IMG/VR virus record: IMGVR_UViG_3300046488_000087
Location: 1 to 31,017 of that record
Strand: one strand, 5' to 3'
From: a virus
Lineage: Duplodnaviria > Caudoviricetes
Length of the DNA: 31,017 bases
The notes under the pieces are model-generated. The model was not told the DNA's origin. It did no database searches and worked only from the letters and a program-made list of their open reading frames with translations. Shown piece by piece: positions 3,017 to 31,017 of the stretch. The position numbers were made by a program, and so were the translations under genes. The stretch's first letter is position 1, and each line of letters begins with the position of its first letter.

Positions 3017-3874
3017 TTATGCGAGCGAGTCCCAGGCCCCCTCAAGCTGGTCTCCGGCTTCCCGGAAGTCCTTGGGATGGATGGTTCCCTTTGCTGCACC
3101 CTTGGAGCCGCCCTCTACGACGGTCTTTCCACTGATGCCTTTTTTAAGTTCGTCTAGACGGGTGTTAGCCCGCTTCTCCACAATGGAATCAAGTGCTTCG
3201 GGGTGGAGGTCGTAATATGTTGCTTTCACAAGACGTACGATTTTTTCAGGTGAGTCCACCGCCTTGTCGGACAGTGCATCGACCCTCTCCTGTAGTTCGA
3301 GGAACAGCTCATCACGATCTGGGCCGGATAACTCAACACCCTCTTTTGTAAGGGCCGTAAGGCCACTTTCGAGTGCGGTATCCGTTTCACCGAGCTGTTG
3401 CTTCTCTGCGTACGAGAGAGAAGATTTCACGCCCTCTTCCAACTCCGCGAGTCTGGTTTTCAATGCAACCACTTCGGGGTCGGGTTGAGCAGCAAATGGG
3501 TCAAACGTGGGAGCTTCCTCTTTTACGGGGGGCGCCGGTGTTTCCAGTTGCTTCTTGAGTGCGTAAAATTCTGCCTTCTGACGGTTTAGGGCTTGCGCCT
3601 TCGTGTCATAGTTGACGCCGTACGAAGCCCACTTTAGAAGTTCGGCCTGGTCTTTAGGTGTCCACTCCTTCCCCGCTGCCTTGAACTTGAACTTGGAACC
3701 ATCCCACTGCGCCACTTGTGAAGGGGCGTTCTCAGTTGATGATGGCTGCTCCGTTCCTGCGTCGTCGGGGGTTACAGGCTGTTGGGCCGCGAGGGCCTGA
3801 GTTTCGTCCGTATCGGTGAAGAACGATTCAGGACTTCCCGACGTTACAACGTTGCCTTTGTCTTCCAATGGCAT
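3017..3874 (-). CDS. Capsid scaffolding protein
   Basis: 285 aa, acidic disordered N-terminus, coiled-coil, GVNYDTKAQAL motif typical of scaffolds; directly upstream of the capsid gene. Confidence 0.75.
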   Translation of the reverse strand: MPLEDKGNVVTSGSPESFFTDTDETQALAAQQPVTPDDAGTEQPSSTENAPSQVAQWDGSKFKFKAAGKEWTPKDQAELLKWASYGVNYDTKAQALNRQKAEFYALKKQLETPAPPVKEEAPTFDPFAAQPDPEVVALKTRLAELEEGVKSSLSYAEKQQLGETDTALESGLTALTKEGVELSGPDRDELFLELQERVDALSDKAVDSPEKIVRLVKATYYDLHPEALDSIVEKRANTRLDELKKGISGKTVVEGGSKGAAKGTIHPKDFREAGDQLEGAWDSLA

Positions 3875-3893: not shown

Positions 3894-4460
3894 TTATGTC
3901 CAATCTTCGGTCAGGTATTGCCCTGCCAGTGCGTTAATCTTGTCCATGTTCTTGCCTGTCCAGACGTTGTGTTTAACGCTGTCATGCAGGGTTGAGGGAA
4001 TATAAATTACGTCCTCCTTGTTAATGTGATGCCCGTCGCTGTTGGGAAACCATGAGTTCAGGAGGTTCCAACCAAGAAGGCGGCGTTTGGCGCGAGACTT
4101 TCTCCAAGACACTCCCTGACCGCCCCTCCAATTTCCAATAGATATCTTGGCGCGGGTTTCGGGAGACATAATGCGCCCCATCAGCGTGGCAGACGTTTTT
4201 GCGCGAGTTTCAGGGGATGGATTCGCGTGCGCAACGCACAACCTTGCACATGTTTCCGGCGATGCTTTATGGCCGGTAAGTGTGGCAGATATCTTTGCCC
4301 GTGTCTCGGGACTCGTAATATGTCCCTTCTGTGCCGCAGATACCTTCGCCCGAGCGACATCAGATTGCGGAACCCCCACGTGCGGATTAGAGCGTCCGGT
4401 GAGAGATGCTGATATTTTCGCCCGCATTTCGGGAGTGCGAACGAATGCGCCCTTGGGCAT
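3894..4460 (-). CDS. NUMOD3-repeat HNH-like homing endonuclease
   Basis: Repeated SPETRAKISA (NUMOD3) motifs plus C-terminal DGHH...LH...HN. Paralog of 17054-17629. Confidence 0.75.
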   Translation of the reverse strand: MPKGAFVRTPEMRAKISASLTGRSNPHVGVPQSDVARAKVSAAQKGHITSPETRAKISATLTGHKASPETCARLCVAHANPSPETRAKTSATLMGRIMSPETRAKISIGNWRGGQGVSWRKSRAKRRLLGWNLLNSWFPNSDGHHINKEDVIYIPSTLHDSVKHNVWTGKNMDKINALAGQYLTEDWT

Positions 4461-17053: not shown

Positions 17054-17629
17054 ATGACAGACGAACAGAAAGCAAGGTTGTCTGTGGCACTAATGGGGCA
17101 CACGGTATCGCCTGAAACCCGTAAGAAGATTTCTCTTATAAATACCGGTCGTGCCCAGTCTCCCGAACTGCGGGGGAGAAAATCCGCCACGTTGATGGGG
17201 CATACGGTGTCCACGGAGACTCGCGCAAAGATTTCTTTGGGGAATATGGGAAATACAAAATGGTTAGGTTCTCACCATTCGGCAGAAACTATTGCCAAAA
17301 TCACCGCGTGGAATCGAGGCAAAATTGTTTCTCCCGAAACGCGGGCAAGAATATCTGCTGGTCTGTGGAAGGGTGGCCAGATGATTGCCAACGGGCGACG
17401 TCGTGCCAAACGTCGCTCAATGGGGTATGTCTTTCTAAACAAATGGTTTTCCGGCTGCGACGGCCACCATGTGGACAATGAACAAATTATCAATATGCCA
17501 AGGAAATTGCACCGAGGCAAAGGAAACGGCCACAATCATTATACCGGAAGGGGTATGGCTCGAATGAATGCCATTGCATACAACTTTCTTTTCAAACAAG
17601 AGGTCGAAGCGGCCTTAGGGGTGAACTGA
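17054..17629 (+). CDS. NUMOD3-repeat HNH-like homing endonuclease
   Basis: SPETRKKIS / ETRAKIS repeats plus DGHH...LH...HN. Paralog of 3894-4460. Confidence 0.75.
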   Translation: MTDEQKARLSVALMGHTVSPETRKKISLINTGRAQSPELRGRKSATLMGHTVSTETRAKISLGNMGNTKWLGSHHSAETIAKITAWNRGKIVSPETRARISAGLWKGGQMIANGRRRAKRRSMGYVFLNKWFSGCDGHHVDNEQIINMPRKLHRGKGNGHNHYTGRGMARMNAIAYNFLFKQEVEAALGVN

Positions 17630-22492: not shown

Positions 22493-22505
22493 TGTAATTT
22501 ACCCC

Positions 22506-22533
22506 TTGCAGGAATTACGAAACTCCGTATAAT
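22506..22533 (+). promoter_or_regulatory. Sigma70-type promoter
   Basis: TTGCAG, 16-nt spacer, TATAAT; a near-identical copy lies on the minus strand at 27343-27370. Confidence 0.75.
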
Positions 22534-25110: not shown

Positions 25111-25508
25111 TGTCCGTATTCAGCGGAAACCCGCCACCGCCTTCGGGCAATGACGGCGCGTACGACCTCCTTTTCCAATTAGACGCGTTCAGGGCGCAGA
25201 CAAAATTTGCCTTGAACTGCCTCCCCTACAAGATTCGCATGGCCGCTCCGTCAATAAAAGAGTTAGCGGACGAGTTCTGCTCTAGTTCTATTGGGCAAGG
25301 AACGGCGGCGGATAGTCTAATGGGGATTCGCGTTGTGGAGTGTTCCCTTGTTCCCGACCATGAGGCGTGGGTTTTCTACCGCGACTTAGCCGCCGAGTTG
25401 GGGTTCAGCGTAAAGAAAATCAAGTGGGGCAAACCCAAAAGCCCCCTTTCGGGGGCTGAGTTTAGGGCAACCGAGCATCCTGTTTTACGGGTTCGCGCCC
25501 CTGCATGA
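25107..25508 (+). CDS. Hypothetical protein (133 aa)
   Basis: AAGGAG RBS. Confidence 0.6.
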   Translation: MMSVFSGNPPPPSGNDGAYDLLFQLDAFRAQTKFALNCLPYKIRMAAPSIKELADEFCSSSIGQGTAADSLMGIRVVECSLVPDHEAWVFYRDLAAELGFSVKKIKWGKPKSPLSGAEFRATEHPVLRVRAPA

Positions 25509-25573
25509 GATACATCTTCAATCCCGTGAGGAGCATTTCCCCGTACGTCACCCCGTCCTCGATGGCGCGGTAC

Positions 25574-25601
25574 TTGACAATGTAATTGTTCCAAATATAA
25601 T
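25574..25601 (+). promoter_or_regulatory. Consensus sigma70-type promoter
   Basis: TTGACA, 16-nt spacer, TATAAT. Confidence 0.75.
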
Positions 25602-25633
25602 AAAACCCCCGTGGAGTGGGGTAAGGAGGCAAC

Positions 25634-25969
25634 TTGGGTATCTATGCCAAAGATATCTTAGATTTCCAGCACCACATGCGGCGACTGGTCAAAGACGAGT
25701 TTCCATCGGCATTTGGCGGCAAAGCCGAGGTTGGGCACCACTTGCTGCGGCGGCTGAACCACCCCAGCCAAGTGAACGATCCCCGCGTCATCGTTCCCGT
25801 CACGGCGAAGCAACACGACCAATTTCATGCCAACCCGCCGACCATTGTGTTTTTAGGGTTTTCCCTAGACAGGAACAACGAGATTGTCGGAGTCCTGTTT
25901 GATTACCACGGCAAGGAGTATGGGTGGTTAAATAGAAAGTGGCTTGAGGCATGGAAGGCGATAGATTAA
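25634..25969 (+). CDS. Small HNH-like protein
   Basis: VGHHLLRR...VNDPRVIVPVTAKQHDQFH resembles an HNH motif; AAGGAGG RBS before a TTG start. Confidence 0.55.
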   Translation: MGIYAKDILDFQHHMRRLVKDEFPSAFGGKAEVGHHLLRRLNHPSQVNDPRVIVPVTAKQHDQFHANPPTIVFLGFSLDRNNEIVGVLFDYHGKEYGWLNRKWLEAWKAID

Positions 25970-25974
25970 ACACT

Positions 25975-25996
25975 AAGGCCCCGCAAGGGGCCTTTT
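25975..25996 (+). terminator. Intrinsic terminator ending plus-strand transcription
   Basis: AAGGCCCC-GCAA-GGGGCCTT-TT. Confidence 0.8.
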
Positions 25997-25999
25997 CCA

Positions 26000-26880
26000 T
26001 TTCTACTGTGACAACTTTTGGCGGGTTACTGTGACATCCAACTCAGAAAGTTAACAGAAACCGCAACAATTTGACATGGAGGTATCCGGCCTTTCCCGAG
26101 GTGTCCAGAAACCATTTATATATAGAAATGGGGAACGGAATGACCCGCTCACACTTTAACGGTGCATAATCTGACCCCGACCTACACTTTCACGGTGCTA
26201 ACGTTTTGCTGGGGTCAGCAAGGCGTGACGAGTTGTCATAACCCTTAAGATTTTCTGAAGTATTCGGTATTTCCTAAGAGATCGAACCGGCTACAATCCG
26301 TAGCCATTTTGCCGACGTGGACAAAATGGTGGACACCGCCCTGCAACTTGTAAGGATTACTTGTGAGTTCAAACCAAATGACACTATGATGTGCTGGTTT
26401 GATTGCCGAGGACGCACATCATAGTGTCATTTGGAGTGCAAGAAAGTCAGCAACTCACTTGCTAAAAAGTTGCGAGAACGTAGGGATTGTGTACATAAGC
26501 GAGGAAAAGTTGCCAGTATGTGCATTATTTGCACATCTGATCTGCATACGGTTGAGCGTATCTAATGCAAATCATAATAAGAATTCCACTATTATCGGAA
26601 AGTGGCAATTTGCAATAATAAGGACACGCACCCTTAACTCAATTCACGTTTGGTGTAACACGGTTCGTGTTATTCCGATAGAATAATTCCAAATGGATAA
26701 TTCCGCACTATGCCAAATGATTGTGCCAAACCCTTAAATAGGAAAACCGCATCATTGTTAACGATGCAGCAATATTTGCTTCAGTTTTAGGCAAGAACTT
26801 TAATAAAGATGGATTAAATCTCACTCCACCTGAGAGCCAACTGGAGTAGTATTGATGCAGCAGCTTGATACTCATGTTTG
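26000..26880. repeat. Non-coding array of many distinct palindromes (putative protein-binding-site array)
   Basis: About 15 different dyad-symmetric elements, e.g. 26112-26131, 26289-26305, 26304-26329, 26374-26434, 26518-26536, 26656-26672; no credible ORF. Confidence 0.75.
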
Positions 26881-26941
26881 GTGCTGGTATAAAATATCCG
26901 CTCTGCCTACGCTTTCGTCAACTAGCCGCCAAGGGGGATAT

Positions 26942-26975
26942 GAAAAGACCCCCAGTCACGGAACGGGCTGGGGGT
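26942..26975 (-). terminator. Intrinsic terminator ending minus-strand transcription
   Basis: Minus strand ACCCCCAG-cccgttccgtga-CTGGGGGT-CTTTTC. Confidence 0.7.
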
Positions 26976-27336
26976 ACGAGAGGCTACCGTATTCTAGCCT
27001 TATGGTCCTGGCTCCTTAGCCTGCCCCCGTAGAACTAATCTTGCGGGGTACGATTGTGCGGAACGGCCCTATTGAAAGCCGCTAAAGCCCCGAGACTGAC
27101 ATCTCGGTGTTGCCTCTCTGGGCAACGTGGTCACCGTGTTCTGACCCTATGGACCACACGTACGGAACTGGCTGGATTTGCCCCCCATTCTAACCCTCGG
27201 TAGGGAATACGGGTGCCAGGGTACTATTAGTGCTGGCTCGCTGGCCTGCCCCCGTAGGTCGAACCTTGCGGGGTACACATTTCAGAACCTGGCGCGTGCC
27301 CTTTGGCACGGCTTTAATCGCGAAGGCTAACCCTTC
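26942..27336 (-). ncRNA. Putative ~395 nt structured non-coding RNA of unknown class
   Basis: Bounded by a promoter (27343-27370) and a terminator; no ORF with an RBS; many hairpins; duplicated 44-nt domain with a compensatory base pair. Confidence 0.65.
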
Positions 27337-27342
27337 TATACT

Positions 27343-27370
27343 ATTATACGGGTTTTAGTGTTTCCTGCAA
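27343..27370 (-). promoter_or_regulatory. Sigma70-type promoter for the putative ncRNA
   Basis: Minus strand ACCCCTTGCAGGAA...CCGTATAATAGTA, matching 22501-22537. Confidence 0.75.
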
Positions 27371-27711
27371 GGGGTACACTGGCCCTTTTTCTTCTTTTTC
27401 TTCCGCTCCACCAATGCTTTGACCATTTGCTTGGATACCTGATAGTTGTTGTCCTCATCAAGCCCGCATCCCGTCAAGTATTGGAGACAGTGGAATAATT
27501 CATGGGCTATCGCCAGGCGAGTTCGGTACTGTGACATTTTCTCCATGATAAGAACCTCAACCGTTTGATAGCCCTTTGTTCCAGGGGGAACGTTGGTCAC
27601 TCCCTCTGGTGCTTTCCCGTCTGGTTCCTCCCCGACAGAACGGGGAACGTCCTTGTAAGCCTCTAAAAGCTTTGCGGGTACTTTCTCAACGGTTATCACC
27701 GTGTATTTCAT
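27355..27711 (-). CDS. Small HExxH zincin-like metallopeptidase domain protein
   Basis: RLAIAHELFHCLQ...DE motif (ImmA/IrrE-like pattern); poly-Lys tail; ATGA overlap with the upstream gene. Confidence 0.6.
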   Translation of the reverse strand: MKYTVITVEKVPAKLLEAYKDVPRSVGEEPDGKAPEGVTNVPPGTKGYQTVEVLIMEKMSQYRTRLAIAHELFHCLQYLTGCGLDEDNNYQVSKQMVKALVERKKKKKKGQCTPCRKH

Positions 27712-30700
27712 GGGGCCAGTTCCTCATAATTGCCCTTGGGCCGCCAACTGAAAGGCCCGAACTTCTTGATGCCGTAAGTCTCGGGGTTCTCCGCGATGGT
27801 CGCAAAGGTCATAATGATGTTGTCTGTCGCGGTAGTCATGTAGACCTTTGCGTCAGCAGGGTATGTCTTGGCGTTGTGAATGAGTTGTCCAATCGCACTA
27901 GCCCGCCCGTTGACAAAGTGCTTGAGCGCGGCGTTGCTCGACCTGCTGGTGGCATCTACGAGAGCGTAGAAGTCATCGACAGCGGCGTTGCTGCTTGTTG
28001 TGGGGTCTTTGACAATGAACCGCTTGGTGAGAGGGGAGGCTTGTGTAGACGTTCCCTGCCCCACCATGTCGAAGACGTACTGTACCTGCGAGGGAATGTC
28101 CGCTAAGAATGACCGCACCAGAAAGGCCGCTTGCCCCTCGTCCATTCCCGTCTTCATAAGGGCGGCTTCCAGTGGATTTGCGGGGGGTGTACCGACGGCT
28201 GCCGTTACTGCTGCCCCAGTAAAGAAGTTCAGGTTGTACCTATATTGCAGGAAGATATTGAGGGCGGGGGGAAGGAAGAAGTTTTCCGGCCCAGGAAGAA
28301 CCGAGACCGCCTGCCTCGCAATGTCCAGTGGGTCACCCTTGTAGCCGAGTACGTAGTCTGTTGCGGCCTTGATGGGCTGGAACCCAATGGGAACGGGGAG
28401 TTTCACCCACCCGCCCGAAGGGGTCGGAAAGTAGAAGTACGAAGCGCGGTCGCGCAGGAGCTTGTACTCTTTCTCTTTCCCAGCCTCTTTGATGGCGAGG
28501 GCACTGACAAGGGCAAAGATAATCGTGGCAAGATTACGCCCCGCCAGTTTCTCGGCTCCCTGTTTTCTAGAGAAGGTTCCGCCCTTGTCCCCGATGGGAA
28601 GTCCGAAGAAGGTGTTACGATAGGCCACCCTCATAACGGCGATTGTTGCTCGCGTAAAAGGAATACAACTGGGGATGAAGTCATTGAAGAACGTGCCGTG
28701 CAGAGCAAAGAAACCAGTGGAGGCAAAGTAGCCGTGGAGCTGGTCTAAATATGTTCCGCCTCGGTCAAGGATGCTCTCCGCAATGACGGAGCGGGTAAGT
28801 GATTCCCCGATTTCGTTGGGGTAGGTTATGATAGATGTAATGGTCTTCAGCGCCTCGATTGCCCTTGTTCCTTTCGACATCATCGGGTCGCGGTAGGAGT
28901 CAAACCACTGGGACAATCCTGGACTCTTGAACGCCCGAATCGTGCCCTTGACTAAGCCCTTTGGAGTAAAGGGAACCGTCCCCACCCCCTGTATGCTATC
29001 TCGCATAATATTATAGAGACCGAATGCGGGGTTGAGACCTGTAGCAAAAAGACGAAGTGCGGTTGTCGGAGATTTGACTAGCCACTTTTCCCATGTTGGA
29101 ACTTCTGGCTTGGCAAGGGTCAGGTTGTGAACCGACTTGGTGACGTTCGTGTCGTGGACGTCGTAAGCCCTGTCTACCCCGTTTTCTTTCAGGTGGACGA
29201 CGCTGTCGGAAAGGACGGTCGTTGCCACCTCGGAGTTCTTGTTTGACCTTACTGCCTCCCGCTTGGCATTGTTGATACCCTGCGCTCTGATGGCGTCACG
29301 ATAGACCGCCAATAATCCAGGAAGCGGTTCAACAACCTTATCAAGTTCGGTCAGGCCGTGGGTACGTTCCAGCGGGGCAACGCCACCACGGTCAAAGATG
29401 TCCGTTCTTCCTGCCGAAAGGGAGACATAATAGTTAGGATGCGCCTTTTCATTGGCATAGGTTTCAGGTGAGAGGAATTGCCTGTAGAACTCTGGGAGGA
29501 GTGCGTTAGCTTTTCCAAGCTCTTGCGCTGCGGCCATGTAATCCACGAACAACTGCGGCTCGTTCTTCTGAAAGTTGACCAAGCTCATTCTCGCGTCGTC
29601 GATGTGCTGTTGCGCGAGCTTCATCTTGTCGGGGTCGAGTCCTGCGGTTGCCTCAATGGGAATACCCGCCCGCTGCAAGTGCTGGAGAAACTTGCCGTAG
29701 TTGGGGCCGTACTGTTTAAGCTGGCGGTTCAAGATGGCGGGGGCAAACTCTCCCTCAACGGGAACCTTGTTGCCGGTCTCGTCAATGTAGAAGGGGTGAG
29801 CGTATTCCTCTCGCAACACCTCGTCGGCCTCAATCGCCATTGTCATCCATTCCGCTCCGGCGGGAGTTTTCATCAACCCGTCGAACTGGTTTTCATACCG
29901 GCGGACTTGAAGGTCTCTCCCCTCCTTGAACTTAGCCATGCCGGAAAGGCTAGTGTCCTTCGTTCCGGCGGTATTCTGAATGTAGTTGTCAAACCCCTTG
30001 CCTGTATTGCTAACACTTTTTAACACGGCGGGGCTAGTAACGCTAGTAGTACCGTTTAGTTCTATCGTAGAATAGTCAATGAGGCCGTGCGCGGGAGAGG
30101 CGTTTCCGAGTGAGGGGGCCGCCGCTGGCGCAGAGGTCGAAGTCAAGAATGAAGCAGGGACACTGGCGGGGTTTGCAATCTCGCCATGTGCCACCACCTG
30201 TTCTTCCACCTTGCCGTCATATACCGCCTTATTGTTGTTGATGGTCTCCTGCGCCCGACCGATGGCGTCCTTGACCGTGGCACCCTGACCGATAAGATTG
30301 CCAGAGCGTGCTTCGATGACAGAGAAAGGACGAGATGTAGCAAGACTTGCCGAGTGATTTGCAAGGCCCTCTGCTTTTGCTTCCTCTTCCGTCAACCGTG
30401 TCAGATAATAGGTATGGGAATCTCCCTTGAGTTCCAGTCGCTTTCCTGTCTCTGGAATAAATGGGCCAGCAATTCCTTTCTCTGCTGCCGTCGTCGGAGA
30501 ATAAGCACGGACACTTTCGGTTCCAGAGGCAAGCCGATAAGTCATAGGGGTTTTAATTGTTGCTACATCCCCTCCGCCTACCCCGTCTGTCCTGCGAGAA
30601 CCTACCGCGTCTATCCACTTGCCCCATTTTGCCACACTAGCCCCTGTTTTGGCTTCCCCTTGAGGGGAAACGGGGGGAGACGTACTAATACTGGTCTTTT

Positions 30701-31017
30701 GATTTAAGATTGTCGTGGCGGTGCCAATTTGAGGGGTAGTTGATAAGGGGGGGGAAACGGAGGGCGGAATCGGGGCAATTTGGACGGCAGGTGTTTCCAT
30801 TTTGGAAATAGTTGGGGCGGGTTGTGTTACCTCCCCCAGCAGTTTATTCCCCTCAATACCATACCACTCTTTCAGCTGGGGTTTGTCTACCCCCATCGCT
30901 TCAAGCGGGGTAGTGCCATTCGTAAACATCACTACCCGCCGTTTGGTGTCCAAGACAACATTCGTGGCGGTGGGGTGCTGAACCTGAACGGATTTCAGAT
31001 CCACCTTCGCCGTGACA
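27708..31017 (-). CDS. Large internal virion / DNA-ejection-type protein with LPD38-like C-terminal region, 5'-truncated
   Basis: Over 1098 aa; the frame stays open to the window end. C-terminal motifs ATGLNPAFGLYNIMRD, IPFTRATI and YFPTPSGGWVKLPVPIG resemble those of large podovirus core/polyvalent proteins (from recall). Confidence 0.65.
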   Translation of the reverse strand, partial: VTAKVDLKSVQVQHPTATNVVLDTKRRVVMFTNGTTPLEAMGVDKPQLKEWYGIEGNKLLGEVTQPAPTISKMETPAVQIAPIPPSVSPPLSTTPQIGTATTILNQKTSISTSPPVSPQGEAKTGASVAKWGKWIDAVGSRRTDGVGGGDVATIKTPMTYRLASGTESVRAYSPTTAAEKGIAGPFIPETGKRLELKGDSHTYYLTRLTEEEAKAEGLANHSASLATSRPFSVIEARSGNLIGQGATVKDAIGRAQETINNNKAVYDGKVEEQVVAHGEIANPASVPASFLTSTSAPAAAPSLGNASPAHGLIDYSTIELNGTTSVTSPAVLKSVSNTGKGFDNYIQNTAGTKDTSLSGMAKFKEGRDLQVRRYENQFDGLMKTPAGAEWMTMAIEADEVLREEYAHPFYIDETGNKVPVEGEFAPAILNRQLKQYGPNYGKFLQHLQRAGIPIEATAGLDPDKMKLAQQHIDDARMSLVNFQKNEPQLFVDYMAAAQELGKANALLPEFYRQFLSPETYANEKAHPNYYVSLSAGRTDIFDRGGVAPLERTHGLTELDKVVEPLPGLLAVYRDAIRAQGINNAKREAVRSNKNSEVATTVLSDSVVHLKENGVDRAYDVHDTNVTKSVHNLTLAKPEVPTWEKWLVKSPTTALRLFATGLNPAFGLYNIMRDSIQGVGTVPFTPKGLVKGTIRAFKSPGLSQWFDSYRDPMMSKGTRAIEALKTITSIITYPNEIGESLTRSVIAESILDRGGTYLDQLHGYFASTGFFALHGTFFNDFIPSCIPFTRATIAVMRVAYRNTFFGLPIGDKGGTFSRKQGAEKLAGRNLATIIFALVSALAIKEAGKEKEYKLLRDRASYFYFPTPSGGWVKLPVPIGFQPIKAATDYVLGYKGDPLDIARQAVSVLPGPENFFLPPALNIFLQYRYNLNFFTGAAVTAAVGTPPANPLEAALMKTGMDEGQAAFLVRSFLADIPSQVQYVFDMVGQGTSTQASPLTKRFIVKDPTTSSNAAVDDFYALVDATSRSSNAALKHFVNGRASAIGQLIHNAKTYPADAKVYMTTATDNIIMTFATIAENPETYGIKKFGPFSWRPKGNYEELAP

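Follow-up and report, generated by a model that had tools for sequence, protein, structure and literature searches.

What is the non-coding tract of about 395 nt that lies on the minus strand of a tailed-phage genome at positions 26942 to 27336, and is it one RNA or several? An earlier note, made from the sequence alone, had proposed a single novel structured RNA with its own promoter and terminator. The window, that is, the whole 31,017-nt stretch of DNA that was analyzed, belongs to a tailed phage from peat, with a completeness of about 72% and relatives of 43 kb. Its genes include a large terminase, a P22-like portal, a major head protein, a primase, a DnaB helicase and nucleases; the terminase stands below 30% to cultured phages, and a GTDB search for the phage host returned a single weak 28-residue match. 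On the minus strand the late gene block ends with a short open reading frame, followed by the cassette (as we call the tract) and then by AT-rich non-coding DNA.

27355-27711, minus strand: 118-aa HExxH ORF, last of the late gene block (from context)
26000-26930, no strand: non-coding block rich in AT and in palindromes, immediately downstream of the cassette (GC 0.42-0.46)

Look-alikes of the HExxH ORF in the atlas fall into viral SprT/IrrE-like clusters, which we treat as a lead only. Straight after its HExxH gene, L009 carries another hairpin-rich non-coding stretch (3330-3560) that is unlike the window RNA and is followed by an HNH-like gene; a global alignment of the window with L009 from the end of the HExxH gene onward gave no homology. 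Elsewhere in the window we noted an ORF of at least 1098 aa (27708-31016, minus strand) with no Pfam or PHROG match, and two NUMOD3 homing-endonuclease-like genes (3894-4460, minus strand, and 17054-17629, plus strand). The AT-rich block lies between converging gene blocks, holds a perfect 21-nt inverted repeat (26374-26434) and contains words conserved in six relatives, with ParA-like genes nearby in G008 and G001; it is a candidate origin, partition or packaging site. Close to it, 25501-25895 on the minus strand has a folding z of about -3.9 (8 shuffles), and spans both a 12/12 plus-strand promoter at 25574 and an apparent remnant of the gene found behind ParA in L032.

The promoter that had been proposed, TTGCAG-16-TATAAT, is present, with TTGCAG at 27370, TATAAT at 27348 and a spacer of 16 nt. 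Read as CTTGCA-N17-TATAAT, the motif matches the window exactly in two places, where 0.05 would be expected, and L032 and L044 have it at the corresponding position.

27343-27371, minus strand: phage promoter of the sigma70 type, CTTGCA-N17-TATAAT, which overlaps the upstream ORF at its end (motif count and relatives)
22505-22533, plus strand: second copy of the cassette promoter, ahead of an early gene (from context)
26940-26977, minus strand: terminator-like hairpin with a 7-bp stem, a 12-nt loop and a U-rich tail (relative L049)

The intrinsic terminator held up in part: the terminator-like hairpin is there and is identical over 40 of 40 nt in L049, but a consensus promoter and terminator scan of the window listed neither it nor the cassette promoter. 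When the window and eleven distinct relatives are compared, this promoter stands directly ahead of the cassette in the window and L044 only. Most other cassettes sit behind a phosphoesterase-like gene, with which they would be co-transcribed. Just downstream of that gene lie one to three copies of TGACGCAGTA, which open the promoter-less cassettes of L045, L048, L049, L050, L072, L082 and L087.

Folding of the locus yields a z of -3.1, with none of 100 shuffles equally stable, and among 24 control windows from this phage one fell below -3 (8 shuffles each). Every helix arm named in the earlier note lies where it had been placed, including TAAAGCC at 27316 and GGCTTTA at 27089, and so do the three copies of GTTCCG (27168, 27064 and 26964), a count seen in 0 of 2000 shuffles. 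Two repeats had been overlooked: a 47-nt internal duplication with copies 225 nt apart, whose 14-nt exact core none of 1000 shuffles contained, and another copy of the element named module C below, 147 nt from the first. The ATG frame of 17 codons, the only ORF noticed earlier, exists, but longer GTG frames (21-43 aa) run on the same strand. A Shine-Dalgarno-like word stands upstream of only two starts inside the RNA, which yield 13 and 6 aa, and no coding role for the cassette is evident.

Membership of an Rfam family is defined by a covariance-model score at or above gathering. With the Rfam 15 models, the scan that had been suggested as a novelty check, the window gave no family match (best score at the locus 16.5 bits, E 0.66), and no match above gathering was found in 16 relative loci. 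ARAGORN detected no tRNA or tmRNA in the window or in 17 loci, and both searches agree with the view that RNase P, tmRNA, SRP, 6S and tRNA are not represented. Suspected likenesses to cobalamin, FMN, fluoride, twister-sister, pistol and tRNA-arm structures gained no support from Rfam. Furthermore, neither 50,697 cultured phages nor 72,556 plasmids gave a blastn match, and the L049 cassette, searched against cultured phages and plasmids, gave only six short chance-level matches. No account of this RNA stood among the literature matches listed, although motif tables in supplements might hold it.

Searches with the duplication and the module C motif recovered three near-identical phages and eleven distinct relatives (L044, L045, L046, L048, L049, L050, L072, L079, L082, L084 and L087); in one metagenome search, all seven matches fell within the family. 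Chance rows were dropped from the pattern scans (11 of 14, 5 of 11, 11 of 15 and 8 of 23). The 11 of 15 were imperfect palindromes without the flanking motif, and among the 8 of 23, seven scored 13-22 bits against 36-52 for the rows kept and one was unscored. Set beside these relatives, the window cassette resolves into the following elements.

27289-27332, minus strand: module A, diverged copy, a three-way junction with unpaired UUAAA (by-eye alignment to L049a and L079b)
27295-27310, minus strand: P3 hairpin of module A, CGTGCC/GGCACG (compensatory changes against L049a)
27246-27276, minus strand: module B copy 1, a hairpin with an asymmetric internal loop and a 5-nt apical loop (29 of 31 nt as in L049)
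27235-27246, minus strand: GGC/GCC hexaloop hairpin following B copy 1 (repeated after B copy 2)
27168-27219, minus strand: segment X, closed by CTGG/CCAG (sequence only)
27128-27156, minus strand: module C copy 1, putative compact three-helix junction with an 8-nt conserved loop (nine copies)
27109-27126, minus strand: hairpin H2 with a conserved hexaloop (2 of 8 rows show double-sided changes at two pairs)
27090-27107, minus strand: hairpin H3, CCGAGA/TCTCGG (no homolog found)
27069-27081, minus strand: element Y, 13 nt, also in L044 at another cassette position (E 0.29)
27021-27051, minus strand: module B copy 2, apical G-C replaced by A-U (duplication)
27010-27021, minus strand: second GGC/GCC hexaloop hairpin (from the sequence)
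26981-27009, minus strand: module C copy 2, compensatory changes in two helices (member of the training set)

In the relatives, each non-coding cassette closes a gene block, and both content and order differ from one to the next.

Window: A'-B-X-C-H2-H3-Y-B-C-T
L049: A-B-C-H2-D/E-A-T
L044: A-C-H2-D/E-Y
L045: C-H2-D/E
L072: A-D/E
L079: A-A-H, then A-D/E-A-A
L082: A
L087: A-C-H2-G

The notion of one fold of about 395 nt does not survive this comparison, since the homologs form a mosaic of independent modules, none of which occurs in all relatives. The modules are dispensable: module C is found in 5 of 12 records and is missing from the complete relative G002, and A is missing from G011. The record of L002/L027 is 99.9% identical to the window except that it lacks exactly 225 nt between the B copies. 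The longest exact word shared by the two repeats is 14 nt, and usual assembler word sizes exceed this, so a real deletion appears more likely than an assembly collapse.

In module A three helices meet at a junction that contains an unpaired UUAAA, and 16 invariant positions are crowded round this junction. Over 18 copies, 95.6% of its cells are paired, the search pattern having fixed some pairs in 11 rows and the other seven having been found without it. None of 500 shuffles paired as highly, a control inflated, as for the other alignments, by the kinship of the sequences, and slid partners reached 11-51%. For one pair that lies outside the search pattern, 17 of the 18 rows keep the pairing, by five types of pair. 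The module occurs in 11 of 12 records in one to five copies (it is missing from G011), most of these records having been chosen by the A pattern. It stands alone among early genes in G008 and G009. An unrelated phage of about 30% GC also carries it, the outer helix there being 10 bp long (L075 289-350 and L080 1494-1553), together with another conserved hairpin element between genes (L075 about 660-715, L080 about 2105-2165). In the window copy the outer helix is down to two pairs and one invariant C has become A, and the family model R1 did not find it at E<=5. This copy is thus a variant or a decaying one, and its failure against the model suggests that parts of the cassette may be decaying. 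Segment X, which matched neither R1 nor R2, is possibly a far-diverged A- or C-like module.

For module C, a compact three-helix junction appears to fit best. Its helices 1-3 are paired in 72 of 72 cells (nine copies), and together with H2 the figure is 99.1%, as high as in none of 500 shuffles; the folds were chosen after the alignment had been viewed and the rows are related, so these controls overstate the support. An alternative with a simple inner hairpin pairs in 45 of 45 cells, and the 6-bp helix listed in the earlier note pairs in 85%, a value equalled in 59 of 500 shuffles. Among the three known copies of module B, a single G-C pair is replaced by A-U. Domain D/E measures about 140 nt (L044 2172-2310); it is absent from the window and occurs also in L045, L046, L048, L049, L050, L072 and L079. 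It comprises several helices, a kissing loop and a T-loop-like hairpin, has no Rfam match, and is 97.6% paired with 13 pairs changing on both sides (six rows); both partners of the kissing loop change together in L079, L072 and L050. Taken by itself, D/E is a strong new RNA motif. Other modules were seen only in relatives: module F is common to L046 and L048 (minus strand, after D/E), where an H-type pseudoknot is possible by eye, module G to L084 and L087, and module H to L079 (720-815) and L084.

These comparisons also decide between the helices first suggested. Homologs support CGTGCC/GGCACG and GTTGCC/GGCAAC, support AGGCTA/TAGCCT partly, and hold three of the six pairs of GTGGTC/GACCAC. 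They do not support GAAGG/CCTTC, nor the long-range TAAAGCC/GGCTTTA: in module A, TTAAA forms the unpaired junction and does not vary, and the partner strand is absent from L002. For CCGAGA/TCTCGG we found no homolog for comparison. Covariation among homologs, named beforehand as a check, is seen in the helices of modules A, C and D/E. In the three module alignments G-U cells outnumber A-C cells by 8:0, 7:1 and 29:1 (44:2 in total), an excess that points to RNA made from the promoter's strand. Covariation, strand-biased G-U pairs, promoter conservation and the lack of an Rfam match together support the central proposal, namely that the locus has its own promoter and encodes a novel structured non-coding RNA. 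With the single fold set aside, the locus is very probably a modular structured RNA cassette.

How might such a cassette work? The promoter would likely drive transcription of the string of modules into a non-coding RNA, whose modules may fold independently in the cell and may be shuffled by recombination at short shared words. Three metatranscriptome contig sets of the same study gave no record on 25500-28500, an outcome that is silent on expression. The module RNAs would then act in trans and titrate host RNA-binding proteins, most plausibly defence proteins. The early timing of expression and the sponge or anti-defence role suggested in the earlier note are likewise inferred. Small folds that are dispensable, vary in copy number, are tightly conserved and have no gene under their control are best accommodated by such trans-acting decoys. 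The reading draws partly on analogy with pseudo-ToxI (discussed below), an accessory, copy-variable and recombining phage RNA that serves as a tested precedent. We propose it tentatively, at somewhat less than an even chance, because no mimicked host RNA has been found and module A also occupies cis-type sites. No host RNA resembling a module came to light, module C having no exact-pattern match in GTDB, whereas known mimics are similar to an RNA of the host. Also against decoys, the window's own A copy escapes the family model and may be decaying, the AT-rich block follows the cassette in at least 7 of 11 relatives, which a decoy does not need, and module A alone between early genes fits a cis role as well.

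Several other explanations deserve consideration. One or more modules, A above all, could be undescribed self-cleaving ribozymes that free the other modules. The 16 invariant positions round the junction of A, its occurrence in up to five copies per genome and its placement on both sides of D/E in L049 and L079 would suit such a role, as would the processing of neighbouring RNAs reported for phage theta ribozymes (PMC10879173). However, no Rfam ribozyme family matched, loose hammerhead and HDV-like descriptors gave no match on the window sense strand (scattered matches occurred elsewhere), and C and D/E exist without A in L045, L046 and L048, leaving self-cleavage an unlikely account. The modules could instead work in cis, on the transcript during or after its synthesis, through antitermination or by blocking nucleases. 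In L044 and L086 module A follows closely on a promoter, in L067, L028 and L075 it stands ahead of genes, and in L049 and L079 it is preceded by a hairpin whose 3' arm may resemble boxA. Yet the window cassette closes with a terminator-like hairpin, beyond which about 900 nt pass without a clear gene, and a series of several unlike modules is hard to account for in this way; we consider cis action rather unlikely.

Control or priming of the adjacent AT-rich block, as an origin or partition site of a plasmid-like prophage, would explain why the cassette faces this block both where late genes precede it and where early ones do, and would agree with the ParA-like genes near the block. That no module is common to all relatives, that the terminator-like hairpin closes the cassette, that the phage has its own primase and DnaB helicase and that the block is only a candidate origin make this distinctly unlikely. 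The hairpins might also be DNA-level features or non-functional remnants, given that transcription of the cassette is deduced and the window's A copy is degenerate, but the covariation, the G-U bias to one strand, the kissing loop, the conserved promoter and the presence of A in the 30%-GC phage as well render this improbable. Least probable is a single large ornate RNA of the GOLLD/ROOL kind with variable insertions: size, own promoter and folding z speak for it, whereas the variable order and content, the lack of a common core, the 225-nt deletion variant and the absence of an Rfam match largely refute it.

Returning to decoys, a broader version, which we regard as possible but doubtful, is that the cassette might be an RNA-only accessory locus that recombines and holds at least six undescribed folds, each a decoy or catalyst for a different host protein, with module A spread to unrelated phages. 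If true, this would be an RNA counterpart of phage anti-defence gene islands, and unlike folded RNAs swapped like genes would widen the accessory content of phages. Even without a function, several new covarying RNA motifs absent from Rfam would be gained, and each module is small enough for direct synthesis and assay (cleavage, ligand or protein binding).

GOLLD and ROOL have one conserved architecture and Rfam models. They are reported to be large phage-associated RNAs (PMC5737381; bioRxiv 10.1101/2024.12.08.627333) and, like the cassette, structured non-coding RNAs of open function; the whole-length conserved architecture is not found here, where module content and order vary and a 225-nt deletion variant exists. 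With theta (HDV-like) ribozymes (PMC10879173) the modules share being small conserved phage RNA folds beside other RNAs, although no tRNA is adjacent in the window or in 17 loci, and a loose descriptor of the HDV-like nested double pseudoknot with catalytic C gave no match on the window sense strand. Racr (PMC10651486) and viral sgRNAs (bioRxiv 10.64898/2026.06.01.729453) are reported to be small phage RNAs that act in trans on host defence proteins, as the putative decoys would, but they mimic CRISPR repeats or guides, whereas the cassette matches no CRISPR-repeat or tracr family. A solitary CRISPR repeat copy was looked for, and no CRISPR repeat family appeared at E<=10, in a search from which the host's own repeats may be missing. 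The closest parallel to the decoy reading is pseudo-ToxI of phage PhiTE, an RNA antitoxin mimic that titrates ToxN (PMC3475682). Both are intergenic phage non-coding RNAs made of short folded units whose number varies by expansion and recombination; pseudo-ToxI is one 36-nt unit, repeated head to tail and matching a host antitoxin, whereas here unlike modules are mixed and no host counterpart came to light. The cassette repeats are dispersed, 147 and 225 nt apart, and likeness to a host antitoxin was scanned for with module C alone, whose exact pattern is absent from all 185,579 GTDB species genomes. To our knowledge, the phage counter-defence RNAs known so far are single mimics of one host RNA. 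Phage clusters of orphan RNA motifs are known in kind; the modules described here would add new folds in an unusual, swappable arrangement.
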